Origin: a phage
Assembly (NCBI GenBank): GCA_020279385.1
Contig: GCA_020279385.1_4762.1
Reading direction: 5' to 3' (one strand)
Length of the DNA stretch: 64,000 nt
Positions 21,449 through 53,516 of this stretch are shown here, piece after piece. The position numbers and the translations under genes were made by a program. Position 1 is the stretch's first letter; every line of letters starts with the position of its first letter. The notes under the pieces were generated by a model, which saw only the letters and a list, made by a program, of their open reading frames with translations, had not been told where the DNA came from and searched no databases.

Positions 21449-21496
21449 ATAATAAAACCATTATAGAGTAGTGTCAATCACAAAGTGTATGTGATC

Positions 21497-21504
21497 TATA
21501 AATA
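21497..21504 (+). promoter_or_regulatory. T4-type late promoter TATAAATA upstream of HNH endonuclease gene
   Basis: Exact TATAAATA about 30 nt upstream of ATG at 21534, then SD AGGAG. Confidence 0.6.
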
Positions 21505-21533
21505 AGTTTGCTAGAACTAAAGGAGACCACAAA

Positions 21534-22463
21534 ATGAACTATAAACGTATTTATGATAACCTGATTGAACGTGCTAAGACTAGAACTATCGACGGATATA
21601 CAGAAAAGCATCACATCATACCACGTTGTATGAATGGAAGCGATGATGATAGCAATCTAGTTAGACTCACCCCAGAGGAACATTACATTGCTCACCTTCT
21701 GTTAGTTAAGATTTACCCAGATAACAGTAAATTGGTTTATGCTGCAAATATGATGTGCGTTTCTTCTGATTCACATAATGGAGAAAGACAGTCAAATAAA
21801 CGTCATGGTTGGTTGCGTAGAAAAATGGCAGAGGCACATAGTAAAAGAATCCGCGATAGAATGGAGAACGATCCTGAATATAGAGCTAAGGTTTCGGAAT
21901 GGGCTAGAAAAATGGGTAAAGCCATGAAAGGAGTTAAGCGAGGACCGGAATTTAGCAGAAAGTTGGCAGAAAGAAACAGAAATACCGTGATGAAAGAAGA
22001 AACTAAACGTAAAATCGGGGAAGCCAACAAAGGAAGGAAACGTACAGAAGAATATAAAAGAAAACATAGTGAGCGGTATAAGGGTGAAGGTAATCCGATG
22101 TATGGTAAACGAGGAAAGGAACATCCGGCATATGGTACTAAACCGTGGAACAACCAAACATCATTTGTTGAGCAGAAAGCATGGTGGCGGTTCGCTGGCA
22201 TGTTCTATGACTGGTATCAGATGGATATTGACCGTGGGAAACATAAACGCCACGGTCATAAAAGAATGCTTGATGAATTGGGTTTTGTTGGTTGGCGAGA
22301 AAAAGAGCCAGCCGCAGCAAGACGATCAATTGAAATGTTTGCTAAAGGCTGGAATCCTTATGAAGACCAAGAATGGTTAGATTATATTAATACCCGCTTT
22401 CCAAACGACGATAGTTTTCCGCGTTCTTCAACATATACAAAACAAACAAATCCTTTGCAGTAA
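21534..22463 (+). CDS. Free-standing HNH homing endonuclease with NUMOD-like repeats
   Basis: HNH motif (EKHHIIPRCMNGSDDDSNLVRLTPEEHYIAH); repeated basic NUMOD-like modules; opposite strand to neighbours; 3' end overlaps gp56 3' end. Confidence 0.85.
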   Translation: MNYKRIYDNLIERAKTRTIDGYTEKHHIIPRCMNGSDDDSNLVRLTPEEHYIAHLLLVKIYPDNSKLVYAANMMCVSSDSHNGERQSNKRHGWLRRKMAEAHSKRIRDRMENDPEYRAKVSEWARKMGKAMKGVKRGPEFSRKLAERNRNTVMKEETKRKIGEANKGRKRTEEYKRKHSERYKGEGNPMYGKRGKEHPAYGTKPWNNQTSFVEQKAWWRFAGMFYDWYQMDIDRGKHKRHGHKRMLDELGFVGWREKEPAAARRSIEMFAKGWNPYEDQEWLDYINTRFPNDDSFPRSSTYTKQTNPLQ

Positions 22464-22911
22464 GACCTAATGCTAGGAATTTACACATAATAAAATGGAG
22501 TTGGTCCACCGCCTCTAGGTATGTTTCGAGACGATCCGCCTCTGGCAAATCACTAAAGAGGCGGTTTCGTGCTTCCATGTGATTTGCTTTCCAGTGTTTC
22601 CATACCGCGCTCGCGTCCTTCCCGTTAGACATTCCACCTAATGCAGTATACAATTCTCGTGTTTCGTCGTCAAGAGCATTATCATTCGCTCGAATAAAAT
22701 CTAAAATTTCTCCACACGTTTTCAATTCGTCAATTTTTGCTACCCACGGACGGTCCTTAGACACCTGATCCTGTAACGCTTTTTGCATATTCATCATGTG
22801 TTGGAACGGGTTATCACCGTTGGCGATGATTTCTTTATATTTTTCTTCTGCAAAATTCAGAGTTTCCGCATTTACTAAGTGTGCACAAGAATTAAATTCT
22901 GACATATTCAC
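22387..22911 (-). CDS. 56: dCTP pyrophosphatase gp56-like
   Basis: 174 aa, size and position (next to primase 61) match T4 gp56; assignment by synteny. Confidence 0.6.
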   Translation of the reverse strand: MNMSEFNSCAHLVNAETLNFAEEKYKEIIANGDNPFQHMMNMQKALQDQVSKDRPWVAKIDELKTCGEILDFIRANDNALDDETRELYTALGGMSNGKDASAVWKHWKANHMEARNRLFSDLPEADRLETYLEAVDQLHFIMCKFLALGLTAKDLFVLYMLKNAENYRRLESGY

Positions 22912-25575: not shown

Positions 25576-26988
25576 TTAGAAAGTCATGTTATTTGCTAGC
25601 TCGTCGAGTTTTTCTCGTTTCTCGGCTTGCTGTGCGCTTTGTGGTTTAACTTGTGCATTCTCCTGATCTGCGATCTGGTTTGGTACTTCATACCAACGCT
25701 GATTGCCTTTCTTCACACCAACGTTAAACCGTGAATAGTAGTTCTTATCACCGTAACGAGACTTGATCTGCTTCATGAGTTGGACGCCCATTTTAGCCAA
25801 GTCTTCGGTTTCGATAACACCCAACATAAAGTCGGCAGTAGCCGGAAGACCTGCTGATTCAGCGGTATCACTCATGTTAAGGTCGGAAGCATCCCAACCC
25901 GCGCGGGTAGTCTGTGCCGCAGTCCAACCAACAACATCCCACTTAACAAAAAATCCTCGCAGTTCTTCCGCAATCGCCTTAACTAGTGTGTAACTATTTT
26001 CAGAGTATACACGCAAGCGAGACGATGCGCAAATCCCCAGATAGTCAACAATCACAACATCAGGTTTAAACTGTTTCTTGAGTCGCAATTCATTCATTAA
26101 CGCCTCAAAGTGATTGGAGTTTGCGCCACCAGTCGGATACTGCTTGATCATCAATTTTCCAACCGGACGATCTCCGATCTTCTTATTCTTAACACGCTTC
26201 ATGCGTGCGGAATATTCCGCAAAAGAAACATTACCATTATCCAATTCATCTAATGTAATGTCAAGCAAGTTTGCGTCGATACGTTTGGCTACGACATGCT
26301 CTGCCATCTCCATTGAGATATACAATACATCATAACCACATTCCATATAATCCGCAGCAAGAGAACACAAGCCAAGCGATTTACCAACATTTACACCAGC
26401 AAGCAACACATTTAGCGTTTTTCTTTCCGCCCCTCCTTTCGTGATTTTATTCAACATCGGCAGCTTAAACGGGATCTTATTCGCCTTAGTCTGATATAAC
26501 AAGAATCGTTTTTCGAAGTCATTAAACCAGTCATGACCCACATCAGAATCAAACGTAATTGATAGTGCTTCCTGCATAATTTCAGGAATAGCGCCCTCAC
26601 TAGGCAATTTCTTATTCTGTTTCTCTTTTGGTAGTTGTGCGTTCGCCTGAATCTCTAGCGCCCGTGACATTGCATTGTACATAGCACGGTCACGAATAAA
26701 TTTTTCGGTTTCCTTCATTAACCAATCAAGGTCTTCCGGTGTATTCTCCAGCGAATCGAGAAGAGTTTTAGCCCCTTCATATGTTGTCTGACTGCCTCTC
26801 TCCTTGTCTAAAGCAATCTGTAATGCAGTTGGCGTAGGAATATTGGAATATTCGTCTACGTGCTTTTTAATCAGCTTATAAATCAGTTTTTCTTCGTCTT
26901 CGGTGAAGTAGTCCGCTTTAAGGTGAGGCCATACATTCGTAAAGAATGCGCCATTGTAAATCAACTGTGAAAAGATAGTTTTAATCAT
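25576..26988 (-). CDS. 41: Replicative DNA helicase gp41 (DnaB-like)
   Basis: 470 aa; Walker A LLAGVNVGKSLG; position next to primase. Confidence 0.9.
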   Translation of the reverse strand: MIKTIFSQLIYNGAFFTNVWPHLKADYFTEDEEKLIYKLIKKHVDEYSNIPTPTALQIALDKERGSQTTYEGAKTLLDSLENTPEDLDWLMKETEKFIRDRAMYNAMSRALEIQANAQLPKEKQNKKLPSEGAIPEIMQEALSITFDSDVGHDWFNDFEKRFLLYQTKANKIPFKLPMLNKITKGGAERKTLNVLLAGVNVGKSLGLCSLAADYMECGYDVLYISMEMAEHVVAKRIDANLLDITLDELDNGNVSFAEYSARMKRVKNKKIGDRPVGKLMIKQYPTGGANSNHFEALMNELRLKKQFKPDVVIVDYLGICASSRLRVYSENSYTLVKAIAEELRGFFVKWDVVGWTAAQTTRAGWDASDLNMSDTAESAGLPATADFMLGVIETEDLAKMGVQLMKQIKSRYGDKNYYSRFNVGVKKGNQRWYEVPNQIADQENAQVKPQSAQQAEKREKLDELANNMTF

Positions 26989-27302
26989 ACATAGCCCCCA
27001 ACTACACGCATAACAAAGGTCTTGAGTTTATACCAGAAAGTTTCTTTTTTCAACTTTTCTTCTGCTTCTTTGATCTGCGCGGTTAACGCCTTAATGACGT
27101 GTGGATATACCACATCACGATCTGACGGCGTGGAGTAGTCGACCACAATACCTTTAGTGTCTGGATCGTATTCAACATTATGAATATAGACAATATGATG
27201 TTCTCCCTCTTCATCAACAATTATCAGTTCCTGGATAACTGTCTTCATTGCTTCTTGAATCAAGCTGTGTGCTTCTTCTAAACTTGTTGGTTTCTTATCC
27301 AT
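26985..27302 (-). CDS. Hypothetical protein (105 aa) at the gene 40 position
   Basis: Coupled to gp41; identity by position only. Confidence 0.5.
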   Translation of the reverse strand: MDKKPTSLEEAHSLIQEAMKTVIQELIIVDEEGEHHIVYIHNVEYDPDTKGIVVDYSTPSDRDVVYPHVIKALTAQIKEAEEKLKKETFWYKLKTFVMRVVGGYV

Positions 27303-27357
27303 AATATAATCCTCTCTAGATATGAAAAAGGGGCACGTAGCCCCTTTACTACCATTG

Positions 27358-28428
27358 TTATGCTAACATATCTTCGATTTCTTTGTCAACTGCTTCGTCG
27401 CTGATCACTTGCCCCAGTTTATAATGATCGTTGATTGCTTCGTTAAACTTATCGTTTGTCAGAAGTGGTTTCCAGAACTCAATGCTATTGGTTTCTTTAG
27501 CACGGAACTTGCGTTCTTCGGTTTCCATCTCTCCGGTCTCGGTATTTAGGATTGAACGAGAATACCAGCCGTTTGACGGTTTCACTACCCAGCCTAACTC
27601 TACAGCCAATTCCAGCAAGCCGGAATAAGGATCGATGCCACCGCTAAATGTTACGCTAATCGGGAACTTCGATTTTTCTTTAACTGTTCGTGATTTTTCC
27701 GCATTCAGGATAAAATCATAACCAGTAATTTCGGTTCCTTCTTTCTGCTGACGACGACCAATAATGAAAACTTCATTGGCTGAATACATCGCGCCCGTAC
27801 CGCCGGACATAACGGTCTTACTAAACATTTCTTGCGTTTCGTAAGTGTGGTTAATAGCGATGCACGGGATATCATTCATAGTCAGATATGGCGTCACCAT
27901 ACGGAACAAGCCTTTAAGTGCTTTAGCTCGCGTCATATCCTGTGCGGATTTCTCATTAATCGCGTCTTCAACTTCTTTTTTACTTGCTAAGTTACCGATT
28001 GAGTCAATAAAGATGATCACTTTATCTTCACGGGTAATTTGCTCAAGCTGGTTCATGATTTCAAATTTAAGTTCTTCGATGTTCTTGATTGGAACATGCA
28101 CCACGCGATCAGGATCTACACCCATAGATTCCAGATATGCGGAAGTAATACCGAACTCAGAATCAAAGAACAAACAAGCCGCATCGGGATTCTGTTTCAT
28201 GTATGCACTAACACAAGTTAATCCCATGTTTGATTTAAAGTGCTTAGACGGACCAGCAAAGAAAATCAGACCAGATTGAAAGCCCTTTTTAAGATCACCT
28301 GAAAACGCAATATTCAGCATCGGGATCTTAGTGCGAGTATTTGTTTTTTCGTTAAAGAAGCTGGATTTAGACAGTACCGCAGTAGTTTTCAGGGTAGAGT
28401 TCTTTTTCAGTTTTTCCAGTACAGACAT
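27358..28428 (-). CDS. uvsX: UvsX recombinase (RecA-like)
   Basis: Walker A FAGPSKHFKS; RecA-like core; T4 synteny. Confidence 0.85.
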   Translation of the reverse strand: MSVLEKLKKNSTLKTTAVLSKSSFFNEKTNTRTKIPMLNIAFSGDLKKGFQSGLIFFAGPSKHFKSNMGLTCVSAYMKQNPDAACLFFDSEFGITSAYLESMGVDPDRVVHVPIKNIEELKFEIMNQLEQITREDKVIIFIDSIGNLASKKEVEDAINEKSAQDMTRAKALKGLFRMVTPYLTMNDIPCIAINHTYETQEMFSKTVMSGGTGAMYSANEVFIIGRRQQKEGTEITGYDFILNAEKSRTVKEKSKFPISVTFSGGIDPYSGLLELAVELGWVVKPSNGWYSRSILNTETGEMETEERKFRAKETNSIEFWKPLLTNDKFNEAINDHYKLGQVISDEAVDKEIEDMLA

Positions 28429-28439
28429 TATTAATACCT

Positions 28440-28667
28440 CTATTCAGTTAATCCGTAATACTTTAATTGCTTCATTGTTATTCGATCTTTGTAGTGCTCT
28501 TGAATTAACTTTTTCATCGCACCAACATCGATCGTCACAAATACTTCGTTGCTGTGATTTCCGTGAACTTTCTTGAAATGCTCTATGCCTTCCTCACGTT
28601 CACGTTTAATCTTTTCAATGTCTCTCATAGTATATTTCTCACATTGGCGGGTATCGTCACCCAACAC
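28440..28667 (-). CDS. Hypothetical protein (75 aa; start uncertain)
   Basis: Only ORF between uvsX and gene 43. Confidence 0.45.
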   Translation of the reverse strand: MLGDDTRQCEKYTMRDIEKIKREREEGIEHFKKVHGNHSNEVFVTIDVGAMKKLIQEHYKDRITMKQLKYYGLTE

Positions 28668-28689
28668 CCGCCATTATACACACTTTATC

Positions 28690-31368
28690 TTAAATGTCAA
28701 ACAGGTCTGTAAGAGATGCCACTTTTTCATATTGCAGCTTTGTAGCCGTGGTAATGTTCTCCAGTGGTTTGACAAAAGTCTTATTAAACAACAAAGGCCA
28801 GTCTAACCACTTTAACACCTCGCTTTCAATTTCTGGAGGAATACGAGTACCGGACAACCAACCAAAACAGATTTCTCCAAACGGATTTCGATCTTTAAGC
28901 GGTACAATCATAACCTTCTCGCCCTCACGAATCGGATCTAGTCCAAATTTTCGAGCATTACGATTATAACACAATACACTCTTAACCGCATACGGACAAC
29001 CCTTAATCGGATACCCGTTTGAATCGCTGTATTTCTGTAGGTTGTTTGCAGATGATACCGCAGCAACCTCAAGATAGTCAAGTTTTCTAAACTCTTGCTC
29101 AAAAATACCGTAGTATTCCTGTAGCGATTCTTCCCCTTCCTGCAACATACGGCGAATACATTCTTTCAGTGATTTCTGACATGCTTTAGGGGTAGAGCTA
29201 CGTTGCGTTTCCAAGCCCATGATTTTTAGCTTAGGTTCAGCAAATCGCGTTCCTTCCATATCCCAAACATTAAGAGCATAACGCTTTTTACCAGTCCAGA
29301 ATCCACCGATACCCGCAGATTTCAACGGAGGACCAGCAATTGCTTCACGGTCCATAAACATCAAGTGCTCATAGTTGTTCATGTACTCGCATAACTCGCG
29401 ATATCCCTTGTCGATAATAGGTTCCATTCGATGTTTACCGAAATTATCAAGGAAGTCAACAAGTTTTTCGGTATCGTCGAAACGGTCTTCCCCGCCAACC
29501 TTATCAACAACATTGTTAACCAGCACATAAACGGAGTCAGTATCACAATAACGAACATATGCAAAATCGGTTGTTCCGCAAAGCTCGTTTAAGTATTCGT
29601 TAATCTTACGCTCAATCCACTGAATTGCAAGCTGACCGAACAGTGTGATCGCACTAGCGTTACGGAGATCATAAAAACGGAATTTAGGATTCCCCAACGC
29701 ACCATAAAGGGAGTTGATCAAAACTTTTCGAGAAAGCTGGTTTGTATTGCACAAGATCGACTCGTCTTTACATTCTTCCAGCAATTTCTCTAAGGTATCT
29801 TTGCTTAATTCAGAAAGCATCGATTTAAACGCTTCATCGAAGTCGTGACGCACTTCAACGCTATAGCTAATGGTTCCCCCATAAACATGATTTTCATCGT
29901 GTAGAATCGCTTTACATAGTTCAGCATTGCGATCACATGCCAACATCATGTTTTTGTACTGCTTACGCTGATCGAATACCTTTTTAATCTCAATCGGTAC
30001 GATACCATGAATATCTTTTCTATACATCCATCCGTTAGGCGAGCAAGAATACTCATCACTCGGACGTGGTGCAGTTTTATTGATATACTCGTGCATCGGT
30101 GCAGCATCAAAAGATCCGGCGATTGTTTCAGGCGAAATATTAACCTGTCGAATAATAGATGGATACAGACTTGTTAAGTCAAAGCTCATCATCCAACGGT
30201 AAGCATTAGGTACTGGCTCTTTTACAAATGCGCCCGGATAAGTCTGCTTAGGCTGTATCTTGTTCTCCGGTACTACTTTACCCTCAGCTTTCAGAGATCC
30301 GAAAATAATAGCATCCCATACTTTCATCGGGTTATAAACATGGTTAAATTTAATCTTTGCATAGAAACATAGACTATACACAAGATCGATAAATCCACGC
30401 TTTTTATCAATCGCCAGCACACGATCAACGTCGCCGATGTTATAATCGATGTAAAGTTGATGGTTATCATCGCGCAATTTCTTTAACGGACCATCATAAT
30501 CAACCTTACCGATTCCTGTCTCATATTCAGCAACATAATCTAACGCATATGTTGGTTGAGTCGTAAAGCTAAATTTCTTGTACAGGTCAATATAATCAAG
30601 GCTTTCGATCCCCATGATCGTAAATGCTTCACGCTCGTTACCAAAATCATCCTGTGAGATTCGGGATTTAATCTTACCGCACGGGCTTAGACGGTTAGCG
30701 GTTCTACTTCCGAACTTATTACTGATACGTTTAATGATATATGGAATATCGAATGTTTCTGTGTTCCAGCCAGTGAAACCAACGGGTCGGTTTTCCTCAA
30801 AGAATCGGATGTATTCTAACAGCAATTCATCTTCTGTGTCATAGACGTTATAAACAACGCGCTCTACAATATCAGGTCGAAGAATAGACTTGCTAGATTC
30901 CCAGATTTCACCGTTTTTTCCTTTCAAATCAAATACAAAGAAACGATCATGTACGGAATCATAATGCGTAATTGCATCGATAGGATATTTCGCTTCTTCT
31001 GGTTTAGGAAATTCTGGGGCAGTGACCTCAATATCAACCCATGCTACACGGATTTTATTTCGGTCATATCGAATCTCGCCTTTATATGTATCGGACAGAT
31101 AGGAGATGATAAAATCATCCATCCCTAGTGCCTCCTGCCCCATTTCTCCCATCTTTTTACGCCATTTGTTGGCCTCGTTCATAGATGGGAATTTTTTAGC
31201 AATGCAAGGCTTGCCGTAGATATCTTTATAATTCGTAACCATACCAGGCGCGGCATGATGAAATAAAGTTGGCGTATATTCAACGTAACGCTCTTGTTCT
31301 TGTCCAGCATCATCAATATAACGCTCGTAGATCTTATCACCCACTCGCTCACATGACAGAAAATACAT
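28690..31368 (-). CDS. 43: DNA polymerase gp43 (family B)
   Basis: Exo motifs (FDIE), pol motifs (SLYPSII, YCDTDSVYV); N-terminus aligns with T4 gp43; SD AAGGAG before ATG at 31368. Confidence 0.95.
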   Translation of the reverse strand: MYFLSCERVGDKIYERYIDDAGQEQERYVEYTPTLFHHAAPGMVTNYKDIYGKPCIAKKFPSMNEANKWRKKMGEMGQEALGMDDFIISYLSDTYKGEIRYDRNKIRVAWVDIEVTAPEFPKPEEAKYPIDAITHYDSVHDRFFVFDLKGKNGEIWESSKSILRPDIVERVVYNVYDTEDELLLEYIRFFEENRPVGFTGWNTETFDIPYIIKRISNKFGSRTANRLSPCGKIKSRISQDDFGNEREAFTIMGIESLDYIDLYKKFSFTTQPTYALDYVAEYETGIGKVDYDGPLKKLRDDNHQLYIDYNIGDVDRVLAIDKKRGFIDLVYSLCFYAKIKFNHVYNPMKVWDAIIFGSLKAEGKVVPENKIQPKQTYPGAFVKEPVPNAYRWMMSFDLTSLYPSIIRQVNISPETIAGSFDAAPMHEYINKTAPRPSDEYSCSPNGWMYRKDIHGIVPIEIKKVFDQRKQYKNMMLACDRNAELCKAILHDENHVYGGTISYSVEVRHDFDEAFKSMLSELSKDTLEKLLEECKDESILCNTNQLSRKVLINSLYGALGNPKFRFYDLRNASAITLFGQLAIQWIERKINEYLNELCGTTDFAYVRYCDTDSVYVLVNNVVDKVGGEDRFDDTEKLVDFLDNFGKHRMEPIIDKGYRELCEYMNNYEHLMFMDREAIAGPPLKSAGIGGFWTGKKRYALNVWDMEGTRFAEPKLKIMGLETQRSSTPKACQKSLKECIRRMLQEGEESLQEYYGIFEQEFRKLDYLEVAAVSSANNLQKYSDSNGYPIKGCPYAVKSVLCYNRNARKFGLDPIREGEKVMIVPLKDRNPFGEICFGWLSGTRIPPEIESEVLKWLDWPLLFNKTFVKPLENITTATKLQYEKVASLTDLFDI

Positions 31369-31450
31369 AATATAAACTCCTTCACTTACGAAAGACACTC
31401 ATTATAGGGGAATCGACTTAGTTTGTCAATACCCCTATCCCATCAGTATC

Positions 31451-31813
31451 TTAGCGTCCGATCTGATATTTCTCGATCAGCGTCCACTCTTCTTTCTGTT
31501 TGAAAGACAGTACACGGAAATTATTAACTTCGGTAGTTTCAAAATCACTATCAATCAGGGTACACAGATTCCACTGCGCCAGAAGTTTTGCAATGTTATT
31601 ACGGCGTAATTCATCTTCCCACGTCATTTTAACACTACGACCATCTAATTTCAACAACTCCTTGAAATGAACGATGTAATAGCGCCCCTTCTTCTGGAGA
31701 ATATGACAAGACTGATACAGTGTCTTGTCTCGATTGTTGGCAATGCCGCAGCGGGTTAAAGTCTCCTTAATTTTAAGGAAGTTTTCAGGACTAATTAAAT
31801 TAATTTCAATCAT
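31451..31813 (-). CDS. regA: Translational repressor RegA
   Basis: 120 aa, near-identical blocks to T4 RegA (KETLTR.GIANN.DK.LYQSCHILQKKG.YYIVHFKE). Confidence 0.95.
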   Translation of the reverse strand: MIEINLISPENFLKIKETLTRCGIANNRDKTLYQSCHILQKKGRYYIVHFKELLKLDGRSVKMTWEDELRRNNIAKLLAQWNLCTLIDSDFETTEVNNFRVLSFKQKEEWTLIEKYQIGR

Positions 31814-31814
31814 T

Positions 31815-32393
31815 TTACCACCTTTCTATAATCTTTTTAAGTCGTTTCCTTTCTGTCTGATTCTTAGTAACACCCGCCAAAAGTTCATCGGTCGCATACG
31901 GTTTAATGTGCTTCAATAACTTGTCCATATATCCCTTTTCATTAGCCAAATCGAGATAAAACCGGGCGTCATCCATATTTACACAATATGCTTTCGCCAC
32001 TGCCATTAAAACCAATTTTTGGTCCAATTCTTCTGTTAGTTTAGCCCATTTACCGTATCGTTTCCCCTTAGAAATACTCTGTAAGAGATAATCAAAATGC
32101 ATTTGATCTGGGAGGCCATGACCGATTAAATTCATCACATACGCGCTATATAGGCAATCTGCGTGCTGGGAAAGAGCGGTATTAATCCATCTCTGATTGT
32201 ATGCAGAATTATTCCCAACATTCACGCGCTGTTTATCTAAGGTGATATGATCCATCAGAGCAAATAATGCATTGTCGGTTTTCTCGGTGAATGTATCCGC
32301 TAATTCAGACACCTTTTCCCAATCACGAGAGCGCCATGCAATTTCATGCTCGTTTAATTGTGTATCATCTTCACCGAAAAATTGACCTAACAT
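31815..32393 (-). CDS. 62: Clamp loader small subunit gp62
   Basis: 192 aa; position between regA and 44. Confidence 0.8.
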   Translation of the reverse strand: MLGQFFGEDDTQLNEHEIAWRSRDWEKVSELADTFTEKTDNALFALMDHITLDKQRVNVGNNSAYNQRWINTALSQHADCLYSAYVMNLIGHGLPDQMHFDYLLQSISKGKRYGKWAKLTEELDQKLVLMAVAKAYCVNMDDARFYLDLANEKGYMDKLLKHIKPYATDELLAGVTKNQTERKRLKKIIERW

Positions 32394-36839: not shown

Positions 36840-37083
36840 TAATCCACTCCGCGATCACACATTCCATAATATTAAATGCTAACACATCTTCATCAATGTT
36901 GTAAACACTTGCCGCCTTCACTTTAACTAGTGTGTCTCTGCGATCTGGCAACATGATCACATAATCCAGTGTCGCCGGATCATATGTCATAAAGGGATCA
37001 ATGTAAATCCCTTTATTCAATGCCAGATATTCGCGAAGACCTTCTATAACCCTGTGTCTAAGGTAGGTCATCGATAGAATCAT
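36820..37083 (-). CDS. Hypothetical protein (87 aa)
   Basis: ORF between 46 and 47. Confidence 0.5.
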   Translation of the reverse strand: MILSMTYLRHRVIEGLREYLALNKGIYIDPFMTYDPATLDYVIMLPDRRDTLVKVKAASVYNIDEDVLAFNIMECVIAEWINGKVKF

Positions 37084-37664
37084 TTTAGTTTATGTTCCTC
37101 TAAAAATTCTTCAATTTCACCTTGCAGGTCTTCCGCTTGTTGTTCCAGAATATCACGAAATTCACCTACAGTCAAGCGGTGATCACATTTCACCAGTCGA
37201 TGCGGGAGAATATATCCCTTGTACATTGTCTCTGACGCTTCCAGGAATACACCGCTATGCATGACAGAGATCCAACCTGTTAGCGTCAACGGAGTATTCG
37301 GAAAATAATATTTGCTGGATTGTTTCCACTGGACGAAAGCACCATATACAATCGGATTATATTCACCAACCACACTCCTAATAATGGATTCTACTTTGTC
37401 TTTTACAAAGTCGCCAATGTCCATAGTTATCATCAACTCTTTTGGATGAATGATTTTAAGGTAACGACGGTAGCCGTCATCATACCACATCTTAACAACT
37501 GACCGTTCAATATTCGCTTTCAGATAGCCATAGATCGGATTCTTGTAATATGATTGTTTTAGTGTGTATGTGTGCACCAATTTAATAAAATGTTCCATTA
37601 CCAGCAAATCAGAATCAGCCGCGACCATAGTCGTATTCATAATATGTTCCTCGTTCAATCTCAT
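37080..37664 (-). CDS. Hypothetical protein (194 aa)
   Basis: ORF between 46 and 47. Confidence 0.55.
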   Translation of the reverse strand: MRLNEEHIMNTTMVAADSDLLVMEHFIKLVHTYTLKQSYYKNPIYGYLKANIERSVVKMWYDDGYRRYLKIIHPKELMITMDIGDFVKDKVESIIRSVVGEYNPIVYGAFVQWKQSSKYYFPNTPLTLTGWISVMHSGVFLEASETMYKGYILPHRLVKCDHRLTVGEFRDILEQQAEDLQGEIEEFLEEHKLK

Positions 37665-37932
37665 ATTGTTTCAGGTCTTCTAAAAGTTCATCCACTGCTT
37701 GTTTCAGCACATGACGCAGCGTAAAGTAATAACTTTCATCAAATTCTATTTCCGCGCGAGGAATAGAGCGAAACTTACACTTAACAGTAGTATCGGTGAG
37801 TCGCTTTTCGACCATCATCCGAACTTCTTCATGCTCTTTGGAATACCATACATCAACGGAGATCCCCTTGCGTCGAGCAAACATAGGCAACGCTGCATTA
37901 AATTCCATTACTTTTTGTGCAAGTGTTTTCAT
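37615..37932 (-). CDS. Hypothetical protein (105 aa)
   Basis: ORF between 46 and 47. Confidence 0.5.
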   Translation of the reverse strand: MKTLAQKVMEFNAALPMFARRKGISVDVWYSKEHEEVRMMVEKRLTDTTVKCKFRSIPRAEIEFDESYYFTLRHVLKQAVDELLEDLKQYEIERGTYYEYDYGRG

Positions 37933-38180
37933 CGTACAGACCCCATAGATCCACGCGCAATAACATTCTGGGTAATATCAGCAACCTTACGAGATACGAT
38001 GTTTGTTAGCCCCTCTTTGGTGATATTTTCACGATCAAATGGGATTTCGTCATGAGTCCACAAACCATAGTTAGACCGAAATGATAGCATATACTGACCA
38101 TCTCGCACAACCTCAAATACATGGATCTTAGTGAATTTCGATAAACCTTCGTTGATTTCTTTCAGTGCATTAGTAATCAT
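37929..38180 (-). CDS. Hypothetical protein (83 aa from ATG)
   Basis: SD GGAGG before ATG at 38180; track ORF starts from TTG at 38192. Confidence 0.5.
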   Translation of the reverse strand: MITNALKEINEGLSKFTKIHVFEVVRDGQYMLSFRSNYGLWTHDEIPFDRENITKEGLTNIVSRKVADITQNVIARGSMGSVR

Positions 38181-38234: not shown

Positions 38235-39260
38235 CTAACTTTTTGCGTTATTTACTTCGGCTAAAAGTTCATCAGAAATACGCTTGACCGCCGCAAGTTC
38301 TTCCGGTTCTAGGTTTTGTTCTTCCAGATATTCATAGACCATCTGAATAGTGCTTTTAACTTCAATAACACCTGTTTCCTGTGATGCGCTACTCTCCAGT
38401 TTATGGACCACTTTTAGCTTGTGTACAACGGCCTCTAACGCGCTTTCTAACTTAGTTAATCCATTATCAGCGACCGTTGCGATAAGACGCACACTAAGCC
38501 CTTTAAAGCGTTCTACATCGATTTTATCATCTGACGGGTAAGTGATACGCACATGATAAGTTTTGTCATTCTGAATAAACTCTTTTTTGTGTGTATCGGT
38601 ATCGAATACCCAAAACCCACGCGGATCGTTTTCGTCACCCGCCGTTAGTGTGTATGGTGCACCAATATACGTTACGTTACCGCCATCACTGATAGTATGA
38701 AAGTGACCCGAAAACACTTCACGGTATTTCTTGAGGAAGTCCGCGCTATAACCTTCGGATTTTAGCCCTTTATAGAAATAGTAACCGGACAATTCCCAAT
38801 GGCCTACACAATATTCGCTGAATGAGTTTTGAATAAACTCTAAAATCTCTGATTTATTGTCATCACAAAACCACGGGAACAGATCAAATGATACACCATC
38901 AAAGGTAACTGTTTCAGGTTTATCAATGACCTTAATGCAATCATACTGGCTTAACACTTCACGCGGTGCGTTAGGCTGGATCTTGTTTCGTTTAAACATA
39001 TCATGATTCCCGACCGTGGTATAACAAGTAATATCAGCCTCTTCCAGTAACGGGATGACCTTAGTACGGTTAAATTTCATGGTTTCATGGGTAATTGCTT
39101 TTCGGCAATCAAACCAATCCCCTGTTTGAATCCATGTCTTAATATTATGCTCTTTGGAGTATTCAACCGCTTTCTTGATGGTATCAAGAATATACTCATG
39201 CACCCACGGATCATCGCCACCGATACCAGTATGCAGATCACCTAAAAGCAAAATTTTCAT
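38235..39260 (-). CDS. 47: Recombination nuclease subunit gp47 (Mre11/SbcD-like)
   Basis: 341 aa; metallophosphatase motifs (LGDLH, GNHD, GHFH) and extensive identity to T4 gp47 (ITHETMKF, PNAPRE, FCVGHWEL, TAGDENDPRGFW). Confidence 0.95.
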   Translation of the reverse strand: MKILLLGDLHTGIGGDDPWVHEYILDTIKKAVEYSKEHNIKTWIQTGDWFDCRKAITHETMKFNRTKVIPLLEEADITCYTTVGNHDMFKRNKIQPNAPREVLSQYDCIKVIDKPETVTFDGVSFDLFPWFCDDNKSEILEFIQNSFSEYCVGHWELSGYYFYKGLKSEGYSADFLKKYREVFSGHFHTISDGGNVTYIGAPYTLTAGDENDPRGFWVFDTDTHKKEFIQNDKTYHVRITYPSDDKIDVERFKGLSVRLIATVADNGLTKLESALEAVVHKLKVVHKLESSASQETGVIEVKSTIQMVYEYLEEQNLEPEELAAVKRISDELLAEVNNAKS

Positions 39261-39351
39261 AGTCTCTTCCTCTCTTCGTTTTCGATGCTCTCACTATATC
39301 ACAGAAAAATAAAAAGGGAAACCCCTTTCAGAGTCTCCCTTATAAAAGCCA

Positions 39352-39639
39352 TTACAGCATACTTAATACCGTTTGCCGTGTACTGACCCACATAGCAGAA
39401 AGCAGTTCTGGCGTGTGTGGCTGTTTGTAGATATCACGTAATTTTCCGATAGCGTAGATATACGCATCACGGTTATCATCGATGATAGCTTGTTCAGCCC
39501 ACCGCTTAAGGCGTGCAATCTCTCGCGAGTTCTTACGCAAGATCTTTTCCGCTTTCTTAGCGGCTTTAGCCTCTAGTTCTGCTTGTACTTTGTCTACTTC
39601 ATTCACTGCAATCTGGTCATGCTGTTCATTGCAAGTCAT
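39352..39639 (-). CDS. Hypothetical protein (95 aa)
   Basis: ORF on early strand. Confidence 0.55.
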   Translation of the reverse strand: MTCNEQHDQIAVNEVDKVQAELEAKAAKKAEKILRKNSREIARLKRWAEQAIIDDNRDAYIYAIGKLRDIYKQPHTPELLSAMWVSTRQTVLSML

Positions 39640-39640: not shown

Positions 39641-39874
39641 TTATTTTACCTCTGGGATATAATCAATTATTAAAGAAAATTCATCTTCTGATACATTATA
39701 GCTATGTGAGATTGTACCCGTCAAGACCTCAAGATCCGGTGATTTGATATTGCACGGATCGATAATCACCGGAACGCCGCAATCTCTCAAAAATAATTTG
39801 GCGAAATACGGCACGAGGTCAGTTTCAAACTCTGCTTCTTCCAGCAAACGGGAAATGTTAATTTTCAATCTCAT
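39641..39874 (-). CDS. Hypothetical protein (77 aa)
   Basis: ORF on early strand. Confidence 0.5.
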
Positions 39875-40391
39875 AAAATTGGTCCAGGCTAGGCAATTCC
39901 TCAGTCAATACATCTTCAACCTTTGGCGCTTTCGGTTTATTGACCGATTCCTCGTAGTTGTTGATTTTATCGTAAATGTCCTGTATGAATGCCTCATCAG
40001 CAATCTGGCACATATCAGCGTCGCGTTCGTCATATACATGATGCACAAAATATTTGTATTTTGCGGCTGTCGCTGTTCTCTCTTTTTTAATGCGCTGTAC
40101 AAAAGCATTAAAGCACGCTTGCGTGATGTAAGCATGAGGATTTTTATACTTTGTCTCGTCAAAATTAATCAAACCCTTGACCGCCGCTTCGATTCCGTCG
40201 TCGATCATTTCTTCGCGCCATGTTTGACTATAACCAGAAAAGTTAAAACGACGTGATAGATTTTTAGAGATTTGCATAATTGCTAGGCCGATTTGATCGC
40301 TCATTGGAACTTGCCGACCTTCTGCTGCAATTTGTTGTTTCCAACGGCAAATTTCTTCGTAAAGCTCTTTATTGTTTACATAATCAGACAC
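39858..40391 (-). CDS. 55: Late transcription sigma factor gp55
   Basis: 177 aa with long identity to T4 gp55 ([64 protein letters not shown]); GTG start with SD GAGGGTG. Confidence 0.95.
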
Positions 40392-40431: not shown

Positions 40432-41901
40432 CTATTCCCCATTGCCATTATACTTTCTTTGCTTAGTTATCCACACTCTAACCATCTCTACTGATTCACC
40501 GTCAGACGGATCAAGAGTTTTTCCTTTTTTCTTCATGCGGTACTTAAATCCGTTAAATCTTGCATTCTCTTGCTCGTTAAAGTCGAACATCTTTTTAAAT
40601 GATTTTCGCCCTTTACGCTCACCGCATTCTAGCGGAATCATTCGGTCTGTTATTACATTGGCATCAGGTAGAAACGTTTTTAGATAATCTACCAACGCCC
40701 AATCAGGAACATATAGATTAACATTCTCCTTGCTCTCGTTGTCTCTCAGGTTACAACGCAAACATAATTGAAATGCTGGTTCCAGATAATCAGACACATG
40801 ACGCGCTTTCAAAAACTCGTTTGTTGGGAGATCGCAACTATTAGCAAGACCTTTTAAAATATCAATCTCCCATCGTTGAGGGTTAAAGCTGAACATCACA
40901 GCAACATTTTTATGATGAATGTAAGAGTTAAGACCATAAGATCCGTAAGGTATCCGCTCACCAATACCATTTGTGCACGCTTCTCGGTCCCGATTAACGG
41001 TATAAATGAAGTCATCGCCACATTCATTTTTAACCATATCAACAAGACGTTCAAAGGTATTGTTTGTTTCTGACTGGTGACGCGACCAGCGTTCGGAGTC
41101 AGTCATAAGGATGATGTTAACTCTATCTGTATTTTTATACTCTTTGAAATATAGTCTGGATTCTAGCGCACTCGGAACAAAATCGCAATTTGCATAGTAT
41201 CGTAGATACTTCCCGCTATATGTATCAAAGAGATTTGCACATGCTATCGTAACCTTTTTAAAGTCTCCCCACGTACCGTGTTTGTTATCGTTCAAGAAAA
41301 CAATTTTCGACCCATTCTTCCGGTGTCCTTCGTTATGTTTTACCATAACGTTGATTTTCTTCTCTAATAACGCCTCATAAAGCCCTCTAAGAGAAGAATC
41401 GATCATATCAGTACCATCCTTTGCACTTTCTATCTTTTCTTTGATAGCGGCCTTCTCAGAGTCTTTTAGAACTAAGTTCTGTAGGCATTCCGATTCGTCG
41501 GCGATTGGTTCGCAATGCTTCGTGATAAGTTCAAGATTAGACTTAAACGGATACTCATTAAATTCAACCAGTTGAGGAACTTCATCAATGTAAAGAGCAT
41601 AATCACCAAACATTTTTGAACGTTCCATATTAGATAACGCTGTATGTGTAATGAATATCACATCAGCACCGTCTTTAACTGATTGCATTATCGACGCTTG
41701 CACTGTCTTAAGGCTTCTTAGTCTGGTGCTATCAATCAAGACAGCACGACCGCCCATTCTTTTAAACTTATTGTAAGATTGTTCACTTAAAACACGAGAT
41801 GGCGAAGCAATAACCGCTTTTTCTTTTGTCTCTAGGACGTGGGAAAGTATAGCATCAGTTTTCCCCGCCGCTGGCAATGCGATTAATGTTTCAATCTTCA
41901 T
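40432..41901 (-). CDS. P-loop NTPase of unknown function (489 aa)
   Basis: N-terminal Walker A (ALPAAGKTDA), Walker B-like (ALYIDEVPQ); no confident family match by eye. Confidence 0.65.
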   Translation of the reverse strand: MKIETLIALPAAGKTDAILSHVLETKEKAVIASPSRVLSEQSYNKFKRMGGRAVLIDSTRLRSLKTVQASIMQSVKDGADVIFITHTALSNMERSKMFGDYALYIDEVPQLVEFNEYPFKSNLELITKHCEPIADESECLQNLVLKDSEKAAIKEKIESAKDGTDMIDSSLRGLYEALLEKKINVMVKHNEGHRKNGSKIVFLNDNKHGTWGDFKKVTIACANLFDTYSGKYLRYYANCDFVPSALESRLYFKEYKNTDRVNIILMTDSERWSRHQSETNNTFERLVDMVKNECGDDFIYTVNRDREACTNGIGERIPYGSYGLNSYIHHKNVAVMFSFNPQRWEIDILKGLANSCDLPTNEFLKARHVSDYLEPAFQLCLRCNLRDNESKENVNLYVPDWALVDYLKTFLPDANVITDRMIPLECGERKGRKSFKKMFDFNEQENARFNGFKYRMKKKGKTLDPSDGESVEMVRVWITKQRKYNGNGE

Positions 41902-42368: not shown

Positions 42369-42627
42369 AAATCGCCCTCAGTTCTTTATAGCCTCCAATG
42401 TGCTCGTTGTCAATGAATATCTGGGGGTATACAAACCGGAGGCTCTTTGAGTTTAGCCTCCCCGCCAGTTCTTCAATCATATCACGGTCGGGAATAATGT
42501 CAACCCCGACCTGCTTGAATACTGGTTTAAGTGTATACGGAATACCCAGATCATCCAGTAGCTTCATTGCACTAATACAACCATAACAATGATAAGCCTC
42601 TTTCGGTATACCGTATATCTCGATCAT
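42358..42627 (-). CDS. nrdH: Glutaredoxin-like protein (NrdH-like)
   Basis: 89 aa; CxxC redox motif (HCYGCISA); thioredoxin-fold size; near nrdG/nrdD. Confidence 0.65.
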   Translation of the reverse strand: MIEIYGIPKEAYHCYGCISAMKLLDDLGIPYTLKPVFKQVGVDIIPDRDMIEELAGRLNSKSLRFVYPQIFIDNEHIGGYKELRAIYDY

Positions 42628-43130
42628 TTCTCAGCCTTTAATCTTTCTAGTTCTTCTTCCAGTTCCTTGATCCGTTGGTCACGTTCAAAGTCACGCTGTA
42701 ACTTAGTGGCAAATACTCGCTTAAACTGATTGTAATCATCGATTTTAAACACTTCTTCTTCGCCATAGCGACGCACAGAAACTTCGTAGTTATTGAAGAA
42801 TTGTTGCATCATTGCATCAGTAGTCAGTTCTGACGACACCACTTTAAAATAACGTTCTTCTGATTGCAAAAACCAGTTGTGCGCGTATTCCCGTACATCA
42901 TCAACATTGCGGCAGGGGTATACCGTGCCATCAATTTCAATCACAGAAACATAATCGATATCTGGTTCATGGCGATCAAACGCAATAACTTTAAATGGAC
43001 GGTCTCCGATAAACTCTGCTATTGCATCATTTGCAACGCTAGAGTTTGCAAAATCTTCTCTCGTTTTATAATCTTTCCACTGATAGGTCATACCAACAAC
43101 AAACATATTACCAACCTCGCTCTTCACCAA
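42624..43130 (-). CDS. Paralog family A member 1 (168 aa)
   Basis: Shares PFKV...IDG..Y core and C-terminal coiled coil with neighbours. Confidence 0.6.
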   Translation of the reverse strand: MVKSEVGNMFVVGMTYQWKDYKTREDFANSSVANDAIAEFIGDRPFKVIAFDRHEPDIDYVSVIEIDGTVYPCRNVDDVREYAHNWFLQSEERYFKVVSSELTTDAMMQQFFNNYEVSVRRYGEEEVFKIDDYNQFKRVFATKLQRDFERDQRIKELEEELERLKAEK

Positions 43131-43656
43131 TCAAAAATTCAACTTCACGACGTTTAATATCTTCTTGAAGGTCTTTAATCTTCTGGCGATCTTGCATGAT
43201 TTCGTCCATCTTGTCAAGTGCTGCAATAAAATCATCGAAACGTTCAAAGGTTTTACCTTCATTTGCTTCGCCAAATTTAACCATTGTCAGACCATAACGA
43301 CTACTAAACAGACGTTTCAACTGTCCAACGATCTTAGAATCATCGTTCACCTTTTCTTCTGGTTCTTTCACTGTTTCAACTTCACGAAAGAATTTTCTAT
43401 CGAATGGACTAAAGAAATATGTTGCAGTCCAAATGTCTTTTCCTGTAGCAGTTTTCGCCGTATGATAAACACCGTCTAGCTCTATTGCATCAATCCATCC
43501 GTTACCCTCGATCTCGATGATGGTAAATGGCTTGTCACCAATAGCTGCACTAATATCGCTGTTAAGTGGAGAAAGAACACCTTCTCCGTTAGTAATAAAC
43601 TCAGTTTTAGCGTTTTCATCTTTCCAAGTGTAAGTTTTACCAATTTCCCATTTCAT
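43108..43656 (-). CDS. Paralog family A member 2 (182 aa)
   Basis: N-terminus MKWEIGKTYTWKD; PFTIIEIEG...IELDGVY core. Confidence 0.6.
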   Translation of the reverse strand: MKWEIGKTYTWKDENAKTEFITNGEGVLSPLNSDISAAIGDKPFTIIEIEGNGWIDAIELDGVYHTAKTATGKDIWTATYFFSPFDRKFFREVETVKEPEEKVNDDSKIVGQLKRLFSSRYGLTMVKFGEANEGKTFERFDDFIAALDKMDEIMQDRQKIKDLQEDIKRREVEFLIGEERGW

Positions 43657-43668
43657 AATATATTCCCC

Positions 43669-44148
43669 TTAACCGATTTTATCAAGTTCGTTTAATGCTT
43701 TCTCTGCTTCCTGTATAGCTTGCACCCTTTCCGGCATTTTGTCAAGAAAATCTTTCAACTCTTCAAAACTGGAGATATGACGCAAGGCGTTAGCACCGAT
43801 AGCCGCATGTGATTTGCATTCAAAGCGGATTTTATAATTATCCATCGCCAACTTGAGAAGATCAATTAATTTAGATTCTTCTGGAATAATAATTTCTTCA
43901 AATCTGCTACGGTCATGATCCAGAAACCAACAAGATAGACCTACATCGGTTGAACTCATATAAGTTCCATCATGAAGATAAACAGACCGCACGTATCCTT
44001 TTTTCGCATCAACCGACGCAACTTTAAACGGTAATCTCAGATATTTCAAATAATCAACATCATACCATTTAAAAAATTGGTTTGCATCTTTTACATCTTT
44101 CCACGCATAGGTCTTACCAGCTTCCCATTTCATAATATCATCTCTCAT
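43669..44148 (-). CDS. Paralog family A member 3 (159 aa)
   Basis: MKWEAGKTYAWKD motif (after short N-extension); PFKVASVD core. Confidence 0.6.
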   Translation of the reverse strand: MRDDIMKWEAGKTYAWKDVKDANQFFKWYDVDYLKYLRLPFKVASVDAKKGYVRSVYLHDGTYMSSTDVGLSCWFLDHDRSRFEEIIIPEESKLIDLLKLAMDNYKIRFECKSHAAIGANALRHISSFEELKDFLDKMPERVQAIQEAEKALNELDKIG

Positions 44149-46346: not shown

Positions 46347-46480
46347 CGTTCCTCTAATAAAAAACTTTCCTTTAAATTAAAACTAGTCAATGTGCTAGCG
46401 TGCATTTTAACAACAACACCATCGCCAATTTCCAGTTTACGAAGTTTAACTTCTTTGCTCAGTACACAAAACATCATCAT
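46295..46480 (-). CDS. Hypothetical protein (61 aa from ATGATGATG)
   Basis: SD AGAGAGG upstream; longer track ORF overlaps the promoter. Confidence 0.45.
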   Translation of the reverse strand: MMMFCVLSKEVKLRKLEIGDGVVVKMHASTLTSFNLKESFLLEERWLISAGVKAKESVAFA

Positions 46481-50214: not shown

Positions 50215-50244
50215 AATATAATCCTCTCGTTGTTAAGTGGGAGT

Positions 50245-51967: not shown

Positions 51968-52723
51968 TTATACCTCATTCAGTTCTATATCAAGTTCATT
52001 TTCAATAATATAGGCATTAACTGCCCGTGCCGCATCATCTTCTGTGTCAAATCTTCCTATATACACACCGCGAACTTTAGCACCGTAATTACCTTGTTTT
52101 GGTACTTTGTAAACGTATCTATGACGGGAACTTGCTGCTTTTTGGAGCTTCTTGCCATATTCAGACTTTGCATATTCTATATCATCAATCTCGTTTATAC
52201 AAGACCTATCACCAAAATGTTTCAACGCTGCAAGATTATATGCATACGCCGCACCGATCTCGGAGGGAAAATATCCTAAATGTATAGACTTCCCATCCAA
52301 CATTATTGCACCAGTCCAATAACCTTTATTCTTATTAAACGACACACCTTTATACTTCGAATATGTTTTGCATTTGGTCTTGCTCATATTCATATTATTT
52401 TGTTTGCTTGTCGTCTCTCTAAGGTTTTCAATGCGGCTATTATAACGATCTCGGTCTTTATGATCTATATACTTAGGACAATGACCATGAAACATATGAT
52501 AGATAACACGGTGCATACGTTCGTATCGCTCGCCAGTCCATACAATACGATACCCATCGGGGGTATCACTTCCAGCTAATCCGTTTATAACACCTTTTCG
52601 GTGCGGGTGAATCTTCCACCTAAGAAAACCATCATCATAATAAAACCGTGAATGATATAAATCATACAAACGTTTATCTTCTGGAGTCTTGTGTATAACA
52701 TCATATTTTAACATTGGTGACAT
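51968..52723 (-). CDS. HNH endonuclease with AP2 DNA-binding domains (homing endonuclease-like)
   Basis: HNH motif (IDHKDRDRYNSRIENLRETTSKQNNMN); two AP2-like segments (YKGVSFNKNKGYWTGAI..., KVRGVYIGRFDTEDDAARAVNAY). Confidence 0.8.
   Translation of the reverse strand: MSPMLKYDVIHKTPEDKRLYDLYHSRFYYDDGFLRWKIHPHRKGVINGLAGSDTPDGYRIVWTGERYERMHRVIYHMFHGHCPKYIDHKDRDRYNSRIENLRETTSKQNNMNMSKTKCKTYSKYKGVSFNKNKGYWTGAIMLDGKSIHLGYFPSEIGAAYAYNLAALKHFGDRSCINEIDDIEYAKSEYGKKLQKAASSRHRYVYKVPKQGNYGAKVRGVYIGRFDTEDDAARAVNAYIIENELDIELNEV
51968..52723 (-). mobile_element. Free-standing HNH-AP2 endonuclease gene inserted between nrdC and dam
   Basis: Homing-endonuclease architecture in an intergenic position of conserved genes. 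Confidence 0.6.
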
Positions 52724-53516
52724 AAACTTCCTTAGTATCGGATTTTTTACCCCCGCTACGATCTAAACAATATGTTTTATCCAGTTCAACAACAGAAACA
52801 TCATTACGTTCGATAAAATCAAGCAAATGGTTGTTAACTTTCCCTTTGTGGTGAGTAACATTGCTTAATCCAAACTTAGTACCGCTAGACATTAATGATT
52901 CTATCCACATGTAGAATTTAATCTCTTCTTCTTCACTCCAGAACTTATTATATTCTGCCGACGTGATCCAATATGGCGGATCAAGGAAAACGAAATCATC
53001 CGGCAAGATCTCGATCTCGTCATAGCGACCAGACGTAAAACTGATTCGACCGTCTTTGTTTTCTTCCTTAAAATTCAGGACACGCTCTACCGCGTTTTCG
53101 TTAAAAGTCCGGCGACCAAAATTAGCATTAAATTCTCCCTTCCGGTTATGGCGGTTAATGTTGCTAAAACTGTGCTGAATCAGAACAAACAGAGATAGCG
53201 GATCTGGATTCTCGTTATACTTCTTGCGGAATGCCATGTAAGCATCTTTATCATCACGAGACAAATCATTTTCGGCAATAATCCGCTTGATCGTAGAAAC
53301 CGGATCAGGACACTCGTCAATCGCTTTGTACGCGTCAATTAAGCGGTGATCATAGTCATTCGCCAGAACATCCCCTTCGACGTACAGAGACACGCTCAAG
53401 CCGCCACAAAAGGCATCAACAAAGCGGTTATAGTGCTTAGGGAAATACTTACTAACACCTGGCAATAACTTTTCCTTATTGCCAGTATAGGGAATTAAAC
53501 CTAATGCTTTCTTCAT
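52701..53516 (-). CDS. dam: DNA adenine methyltransferase (Dam-like, N6-adenine)
   Basis: SAM-binding FxGxG (DAFCGGLSVS) and catalytic DPPY (FLDPPYW); 271 aa. Confidence 0.85.
   Translation of the reverse strand: MKKALGLIPYTGNKEKLLPGVSKYFPKHYNRFVDAFCGGLSVSLYVEGDVLANDYDHRLIDAYKAIDECPDPVSTIKRIIAENDLSRDDKDAYMAFRKKYNENPDPLSLFVLIQHSFSNINRHNRKGEFNANFGRRTFNENAVERVLNFKEENKDGRISFTSGRYDEIEILPDDFVFLDPPYWITSAEYNKFWSEEEEIKFYMWIESLMSSGTKFGLSNVTHHKGKVNNHLLDFIERNDVSVVELDKTYCLDRSGGKKSDTKEVYVTNVKI

Follow-up and report, generated by a model that had tools for sequence, protein, structure and literature searches.

Background

In phage T4, beta-gt, gene 42 and imm lie between uvsX and gene 43, and alpha-gt lies between genes 47 and 55, an order quoted in the initial annotation of the DNA studied here and correct according to the T4 record. 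The product of gene 42, the dCMP hydroxymethylase gp42, is a paralogue of thymidylate synthase with an Asp where thymidylate synthase (td) has the Asn that specifies dUMP. The present analysis examines the hydroxymethylase and glucosyltransferase genes, and with them the probable cytosine status of the DNA, in a stretch of 64,000 nucleotides from a phage (NCBI GenBank assembly GCA_020279385.1, contig GCA_020279385.1_4762.1; the whole stretch is hereafter referred to as the window).

The distribution of these genes among the relatives of T4 has been described in several studies. Gene 42, denB and alc are listed for the T-even phages, JS98, RB69, CC31, the Acinetobacter phages and some Aeromonas phages and not for the RB49-type phages, with alc and denB following the distribution of gene 42, while gene 56 and denA are listed in nearly all T4 relatives, the RB49-type included (Petrov et al. 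2010, PMC2993671, Table 4). RB49 is without the hydroxymethylase and beta-gt, and digests with HpaII, NheI and XbaI, of which HpaII and NheI cut, showed RB49 DNA to be without 5-hydroxymethylcytosine (hmC) and glucosyl-hmC (Yaung et al. 2014, PMC4041780). For the groups of RB43 and RB49, an absence of all known enzymes for non-canonical bases has been noted, with denA and the dCTPase-dUTPase retained (Nikulin and Zimin 2021, PMC8056088). A 2026 paper on the Durham Collection found no synthases of 5-hydroxymethyl- or 5-hydroxy-dCMP (5-hmdCMP/5-hodCMP) and no DNA glucosyltransferases at the syntenic positions of genomes of Krischvirus, the genus of RB49, and canonical cytosine by high-performance liquid chromatography/mass spectrometry (HPLC/MS) in the Krischvirus TB34 (PMC13390438). 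In RB49 and phi1, gene 43 is flanked on both sides by 'promoter-early stem-loop' (PeSL) cassettes, which are sites of modular shuffling (Arbiol et al. 2010, PMC2839356), and the absence of tRNA genes is a trait of the genus (PMC7552041). The missing modification genes are an already documented trait of the RB49 group, in which gp56 without gp42 is the documented norm, and the finding in the window is a correct re-derivation of that trait.

Methods

T4 proteins from the T4 record were used as tblastn queries against the window and three complete Krischvirus genomes (RB49, SAP and OZ035808), each 96-98% identical to the window. OZ035808, named 'Krischvirus RB49', was considered as a possible re-sequencing of RB49, on which the miscalls at CCSGG discussed below might have been checked, and found to be a separate isolate (~97-98% identical); it was used as the third complete genome. 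The window amounts to ~39% of a genome of roughly 164 kb. Restriction-site avoidance was assessed by comparing observed word counts with the maximal-order Markov expectation, for hexamers with an expectation of at least 5, and a 68-kb sample of T4 served as the control.

Results and discussion

The uvsX-43 and 47-55 intervals

The intervals that carry the modification genes in T4 are short in the window and leave no room for them. The gene for the RecA-like recombinase, uvsX (27358..28428, minus strand; 356 amino acids (aa)), encodes a protein 100% identical to RB49 UvsX and 63% to T4 UvsX (tblastn E=9e-151; Pfam T4_UVSX_C and RecA). It is separated from gene 43, on the same strand at 28690..31368, which encodes a DNA polymerase of 892 aa (55% identical to T4 gp43 over 903 aa and 99.6% to RB49 gp43), by 261 bp as against 3,635 bp in T4, and the longest stop-free stretch in this gap is 77 codons. 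Likewise, gene 47 (38235..39260, minus strand; recombination nuclease subunit, 56% identical to T4 gp47, E=1.5e-115) and gene 55 (39858..40391, minus strand; late sigma factor, 61% identical to T4 gp55, E=3e-68) are 597 bp apart, as against 3,152 bp in T4, with a longest stop-free stretch of 97 codons. The claim of the initial annotation that no dCMP hydroxymethylase or glucosyltransferase genes occupy their T4 positions was thus borne out by both the lengths of the gaps and the negative tblastn searches.

The gap between uvsX and gene 43 had been described as holding nothing but an open reading frame (ORF) of 75 aa. The single ORF was confirmed in the 261-bp gap and its length was not, the product having 62 aa (28440..28628, minus strand; RB49p025 homologue). 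This start is preferred because the profile of PHROG 12120 (E=6.6e-41) spans only residues 14-75 of the mechanically called 75-aa ORF (28440-28667), because the RB49 annotation gives 62 aa and because the GTG at 28667 nearly coincides with the expected transcription start of a promoter at 28700-28673. No match for the 62-aa ORF was obtained in Pfam or NCBIfam. It was considered as an analogue of Imm and rejected, being hydrophilic and charged, without similarity to T4 Imm by tblastn and a member of an uncharacterised PHROG. The boundary given earlier for gene 43, 31398, needed a similar correction: the gene is real, and its start is the ATG at 31368, behind a GGAG ribosome-binding site, which yields 892 aa as in the RB49 annotation. 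The GTG at 31398 sits between the -10 box of a sigma-70 promoter (31429-31401) and that ribosome-binding site.

Gene 43 has an early promoter with a stem-loop of the PeSL type on either side, both on the minus strand. The one at the junction of gene 43 and the small ORF (28646..28700) consists of the promoter 28700-28673 (TTGACA-16-TATAAT, 12/12 consensus positions), which overlaps the stop codon of gene 43, and, directly after it, the inverted repeat GGCGGGT...ACCCGCC at 28672-28646. The one upstream of gene 43 (31401..31435) consists of the promoter 31429-31401 (TTGACA-17-TATAAT, again 12/12 positions) with a GGGG...CCCC stem, formed by the bases 31435-31432 (GGGG) and 31410-31407 (CCCC). 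In some relatives (ECD7, G5211, MIZ4/5) gene 43 itself is split by an HNH insertion.

The two small ORFs noted earlier in the 47-55 interval are indeed there and constitute its whole content. They are homologues of T4 a-gt.4 (39352..39639, minus strand; 95 aa; tblastn E=2.7e-12; Pfam DUF2654, 80.7 bits; PHROG 951) and of T4 a-gt.5 (39641..39874, minus strand; 77 aa; tblastn E=2e-7; PHROG 1169, E=4e-29), while 47.1, alpha-gt, mobB, a-gt.2 and a-gt.3 are absent. An HNH/AP2 endonuclease gene that RB49 carries between gene 47 and a-gt.4 (RB49 26380-26934) is missing from the corresponding positions of the window (39261-39351). Directly downstream of gene 55, a 489-aa ORF (40432-41901; PHROG 2467) is conserved in the genus. 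It was examined as a hidden glycosyltransferase and set aside, since it combines the Walker A motif PAAGKT with a DE box and matches the DEAD-helicase family of Pfam weakly, which identifies it as a P-loop/DEAD-like NTPase.

Searches of the window and of complete Krischvirus genomes

T4 gp42, alpha-gt, beta-gt, imm, imm.1, alc, denB, arn and ndd gave no significant tblastn match in the window or in complete RB49, SAP and OZ035808. For the alpha- and beta-glucosyltransferases, no match in the four sequences was better than E=0.7. For gp42 there was no match in the window, and the three whole genomes returned td alone (E ~0.01), a weak match that is expected because gp42 is a paralogue of thymidylate synthase. 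The place that denB takes in T4, next to rIIB, falls within the window, and neither denB nor alc was matched in the window or in the three genomes. The initial annotation allowed for a gene 42 beyond the window and proposed a search of the complete genome for it and for glycosyltransferases. As far as relatives can answer this, the complete genomes of RB49, SAP and OZ035808 hold no homologue of gp42, alpha-gt or beta-gt anywhere. Pfam and PHROG scans of 20 unassigned ORFs of the window revealed no glycosyltransferase, thymidylate-synthase-family or Tet/JBP domain.

The only gene of the thymidylate synthase family in the complete Krischvirus genomes searched is td, which was considered as a disguised dCMP hydroxymethylase and rejected. 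RB49 td scores 283 bits against TIGR03284, the thymidylate synthase equivalog with a cut-off of 108, as compared with 30.6 bits for T4 gp42, and retains both the catalytic Cys (GVCHPF) and the dUMP-specifying Asn (LPFNVASY). Krischvirus td (in RB49 at 36870-38102 of one genome segment) encodes 410 aa; the two halves of its Pfam domain are set apart by an in-frame insertion of ~140 aa, in RB49, SAP and TB34 alike.

A 392-aa ORF and its neighbours were also inspected as hidden glycosyltransferases and turned out to be goF-like paralogues. A paralogous family with kinship to the T4 'goF mRNA metabolism modulator' (PHROG 5347/622) accounts for at least six ORFs at 42624-44674 and 49036-50854, in two clusters around the nrdG/nrdD region, and the 392-aa ORF holds two copies of the module.

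Identity of the window and its closest relatives

The nearest kin of the window are coliphages of the genus Krischvirus (RB49-type, 'pseudo-T-even'), with 96-98.7% nucleotide identity in collinear blocks over most of its length. Megablast of positions 27000-32000 retrieved 59 phage records at 95-99% identity with a coverage of at least 80%, the top-listed ones all RB49-like, and RB49 itself is 98.3% identical to this segment. Two flanking 25-kb stretches led to the same relatives at 96-97% identity, with no identical record among them. Direct alignment showed RB49 to be collinear with the window from ~152 kb through the origin of its record to ~52 kb, a few cassette differences excepted, and the core proteins are 99-100% identical to their RB49 counterparts. 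The window has a G+C content of ~40% and no tRNA genes, and T4 motA and asiA found no matches in the search of the window and RB49. With this identity and collinearity, the absence of motA, asiA and tRNA genes and the PeSLs flanking gene 43, the window is assigned on its sequence to a Krischvirus (RB49-type) coliphage.

RB49, phi1 and JSE are accordingly the closest named systems. They are collinear with the window at 96-98.5% nucleotide identity, show the same uvsX / 62-aa ORF / 43 junction with its flanking PeSLs and the same content of the 47-55 interval (apart from the additional HNH gene of RB49), and are without tRNA genes; 56, dam, denA, cd and gene 1 are present, and 42, the glucosyltransferase genes, alc, denB, arn, motA and asiA are absent. 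The window differs from RB49 in its gp56 allele, only 56% identical and adjoined by a convergent ORF for an HNH endonuclease, in an HNH-AP2 ORF between nrdC and dam, in lacking the RB49 HNH gene between 47 and a-gt.4, and in divergent distal tail-fibre and adhesin genes. T4 (Tequatrovirus) has uvsX, 43, 47, 55, a-gt.4, a-gt.5, gp56, Dam, denA, cd and gp1 in common with the Krischviruses, which in contrast are without gp42, alpha-gt, beta-gt, imm, alc, denB and arn and carry dam at another locus. The two intervals of 261 and 597 bp in the window thus compare with 3.6 and 3.2 kb in T4. The RB43 group (Pseudotevenvirus), compared here from the literature, is likewise reported to be without known non-canonical-base enzymes, to keep homologues of denA and gp56 and to perform generalized transduction as RB49 does; it is however another genus, reported with ndd and a homologue of a C5-cytosine methylase (PMC8056088, PMC12115623).

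Avoidance of restriction sites

Depletion of palindromic sites is a classical signature of phage DNA exposed to type II restriction, and the phenomenon in general is well known. In the window, 12 of the 52 palindromic hexamers are absent as compared with 9 of 3,485 non-palindromic ones. Those absent are AAGCTT, AGCGCT, AGGCCT, AGTACT, CACGTG, CAGCTG, CCGCGG, GAATTC, GCATGC, GGATCC, GGTACC and TCCGGA, every one of which contains cytosine. The whole RB49 genome behaves similarly (19/60 palindromic against 10/3,934 non-palindromic hexamers absent), whereas the T4 sample lacks none of 45 palindromic hexamers and has a median observed/expected ratio of 0.98. The strongest case is TCCGGA, with 0 occurrences against 25 expected in the window (z=-9.4) and with 65 expected in RB49 (z=-14.8); GAATTC is missing from the window (15 expected) and is present twice in RB49 (46 expected). 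The shorter words CCWGG, CCSGG, GGCC and AGCT reach 0.2-0.6 of expectation in the window (0.2-0.4 for CCWGG and CCSGG) as against 0.9-1.9 in T4. The situation is reversed for GATC, which occurs at 1.05 of expectation in the window and is strongly avoided in T4 (0.35).

Purged restriction sites thus set the window apart from T4, which avoids GATC where the window does not. The pattern in the window fits DNA that is exposed to type II restriction, with unmodified cytosine and with protection of GATC by the Dam methyltransferase. No literature on restriction-site avoidance specific to RB49 or Krischvirus was found. Palindrome avoidance may serve as a cheap indicator of cytosine status that needs only a sequence and could be applied to T4-like genomes whose modification state is still to be established.

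Probable cytosine status and alternative explanations

The window very probably represents a Krischvirus coliphage that replicates with ordinary dCTP and makes neither hmC nor glucosylated DNA. The suggestion of the initial annotation, unglucosylated DNA with a cytosine status other than that of T4, gains support from the genomes of the relatives, from the published data on RB49 and TB34 and from the avoidance of restriction sites. Replication with dCTP specifically is what we infer from the absent modification genes, the nucleotide enzymes that are present and the purged sites. Neither of the two T4 cassettes, segA / beta-gt / 42 / imm / imm.1 or 47.1 / alpha-gt / mobB / a-gt.2 / a-gt.3, belongs to the genome of this lineage. 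The uvsX-43 junction consists simply of a small ORF behind a PeSL, an element reported as a marker of module boundaries in RB49-type genomes. The gp56 homologue in the window, together with the dCMP deaminase, thymidylate synthase and dNMP kinase encoded elsewhere in the relatives, would most likely balance the nucleotide pool and not exclude cytosine, converting dCTP and dUTP to dCMP and dUMP and on to dTMP for a genome of 60% A+T and presumably keeping dUTP out of the DNA. Defence against host restriction would rest on the observed purging of cytosine-containing palindromes and on Dam methylation of GATC, for which a protective role is likely, rather than on base hypermodification. In practice, unmodified cytosine renders RB49-type phages cuttable and clonable, exposes them to Cas9 and restriction enzymes and allows generalized transduction, a point that bears on the safety of phage therapy.

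Several points weigh against this conclusion. That the remainder of the genome of this phage is without gene 42 is deduced from relatives that are 96-98% identical. A strong dCTPase activity of the gp56 homologue would be hard to square with cytosine DNA. Two more putative DNA methyltransferases are encoded by the relatives outside the window, so that site-specific cytosine methylation is possible. Finally, the Krischvirus vB_Eco_SAP (SAP), 98.3% identical to window positions 27000-32000 and with a whole genome that lacks 42, the glucosyltransferase genes, alc and denB, has been reported to contain 5-hydroxymethyl-deoxycytidine (5-hmdC) and alpha-gentiobiosyl-methyl-deoxycytidine (alpha-gentiobiosyl-mdC), although its genome is without the known genes (PMC13390438); no basis for these modifications was found in its sequence.

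It is extremely improbable that gene 42 and the glucosyltransferase genes are present and merely relocated. The window covers little more than a third of the genome, and Krischvirus genomes are mosaic, as the cassettes at 21478-22882 and 51981-52710, absent from RB49, illustrate. However, the three complete genomes hold no such genes anywhere, their genus-wide absence is stated in the 2026 survey (PMC13390438) and in Table 4 of Petrov et al. 2010 (PMC2993671), the companions of gene 42, alc and denB, are absent from the relatives and denB also from its T4 position inside the window, and hypermodified DNA would not maintain so strong an avoidance of restriction sites. A different arrangement, in which the Krischviruses and perhaps this phage make hmC and glycosyl-hmC by a pathway without a hydroxymethylase of the thymidylate synthase family or known glucosyltransferases, is very unlikely as well. 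It takes its force from the SAP report, in which about one-third 5-hmdC and two-thirds alpha-gentiobiosyl-mdC were found without a genetic explanation and the DNA was sensitive to BrxU (PMC13390438), and from the presence of homologues of gp56, gp1 and cd, which support hmC synthesis in T4. Were this phage modified as SAP is reported to be, at least one of the many unassigned small genes would supply a new cytosine-modifying chemistry, a possibility that the 2026 paper keeps alive at a very low probability. No candidate gene is found in the deposited SAP genome, unmodified DNA has been demonstrated for both RB49 and TB34 (PMC4041780; PMC13390438), and the purging of cytosine-containing sites throughout the genus speaks for a long exposure of unmodified cytosine to restriction. 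Moreover, the modification profile of SAP is that of seven co-isolated Tequatroviruses and BrxU cut SAP DNA least (PMC13390438). Because of these two observations, a mixed or mislabelled DNA preparation appears a likelier source of the SAP result than a new pathway. The site-purging signature and the pattern of differences between SAP and TB34 both bear on the 2026 claim, pointing to a sample problem.

SAP is 99.96% identical to TB34 (PMC13390438), and the differences between SAP and this unmodified near-twin were examined as leads to a modification gene and rejected. Of the 64 differences, 40 are homopolymer deletions of a single base in TB34, 8 are additional bases in GGTCTA/TAGACC contexts and 16 are substitutions; 14 of the substitutions give CCWGG in TB34 where SAP has CCSGG. 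RB49 agrees with SAP at almost all of them, and many essential genes are split in the TB34 record. In view of the homopolymer and motif-specific error pattern, the agreement of RB49 with SAP and the split genes, the differences are essentially errors of the TB34 assembly and not biology. The same pattern is one of the grounds for a milder alternative, canonical cytosine with a few sites methylated by phage methyltransferases, CCSGG being the candidate, which is unlikely, although less so than the other two. The relatives encode, besides Dam, RB49p143 (Pfam MTS, Eco57I and N6_Mtase) and RB49p189 (PHROG 757), and in TB34 CCWGG stands in error at 14 of 32 CCSGG sites, with only 2-3 other substitutions in 165 kb; motif-specific miscalls can reflect a modified base. 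They could equally stem from base-caller bias. HPLC/MS found no modified nucleoside in TB34 (PMC13390438), although ~32 sites per genome would probably fall below detection, and HpaII cuts RB49 DNA (PMC4041780), although only part of the HpaII sites overlap CCSGG; the genes for RB49p143 and RB49p189 both lie outside the window. Replication with ordinary, unmodified cytosine stands as the preferred explanation.

gp56, Dam and associated endonuclease genes

The genes recorded in the initial annotation as a gp56-like dCTPase and a Dam methyltransferase were both confirmed as homologues of their T4 namesakes. The gene 56 homologue (22387..22905, minus strand) encodes an NTP pyrophosphatase of the dCTPase/dUTPase family, 40% identical to T4 gp56 (E=4e-42; PHROG 173, NTP pyrophosphohydrolase). 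Its acidic motif residues E81, E84, E127, E131 and D134 are shared without exception by the proteins of T4, RB49 and SAP. The allele is 56% identical to RB49 gp56 and 58% to that of SAP, and rare, being found at 95% identity or more in 3 of 1,409 phage records with a gp56 match, the best of them vB_EcoM_G37-3. PDB sequence searches returned no related solved structure for the gp56 homologue, the 489-aa ORF downstream of gene 55 or RB49p189. Homologues of denA, cd, frd, pseT, rnlA and gp1 (Pfam DNMK, 230 bits) were detected in RB49.

On the opposite strand, a 309-aa ORF for an HNH/NUMOD3 (mobB-like) endonuclease (21534-22463) overlaps the 3' end of gene 56 by 77 nucleotides (nt). Since endonuclease genes adjoin gene 56 elsewhere too, segF in T4 and a homing endonuclease gene in SAP, this locus (21478-22911) is suggestive of a hot spot for homing endonucleases, with co-conversion of alleles.

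The dam gene (52701..53516, minus strand) encodes an N6-adenine DNA methyltransferase of the D12 class, 45% identical to T4 Dam (E=3e-61), with a DPPY motif and a match to Pfam MethyltransfD12 at 106.8 bits. It adjoins the nrdC side in the window, as opposed to its place between 56 and 61 in T4. Between nrdC and dam lies a 251-aa ORF for an endonuclease with HNH_3 and AP2 domains (51968-52723), which is absent from RB49.

Other differences from RB49

At one end of the window (1-2893), the distal long-tail-fibre gene and a downstream gp38-like adhesin gene encode proteins 35-47% identical to those of RB49, with no match at the nucleotide level. The divergence of both implies that the receptor specificity of this phage probably differs from that of RB49. 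At ~46358, a 1-nt deletion relative to RB49 splits the homologue of RB49p055 (178 aa) into ORFs of 134 aa (45942-46346) and 77 aa (46295-46528), representing either a real pseudogene or a sequencing error.

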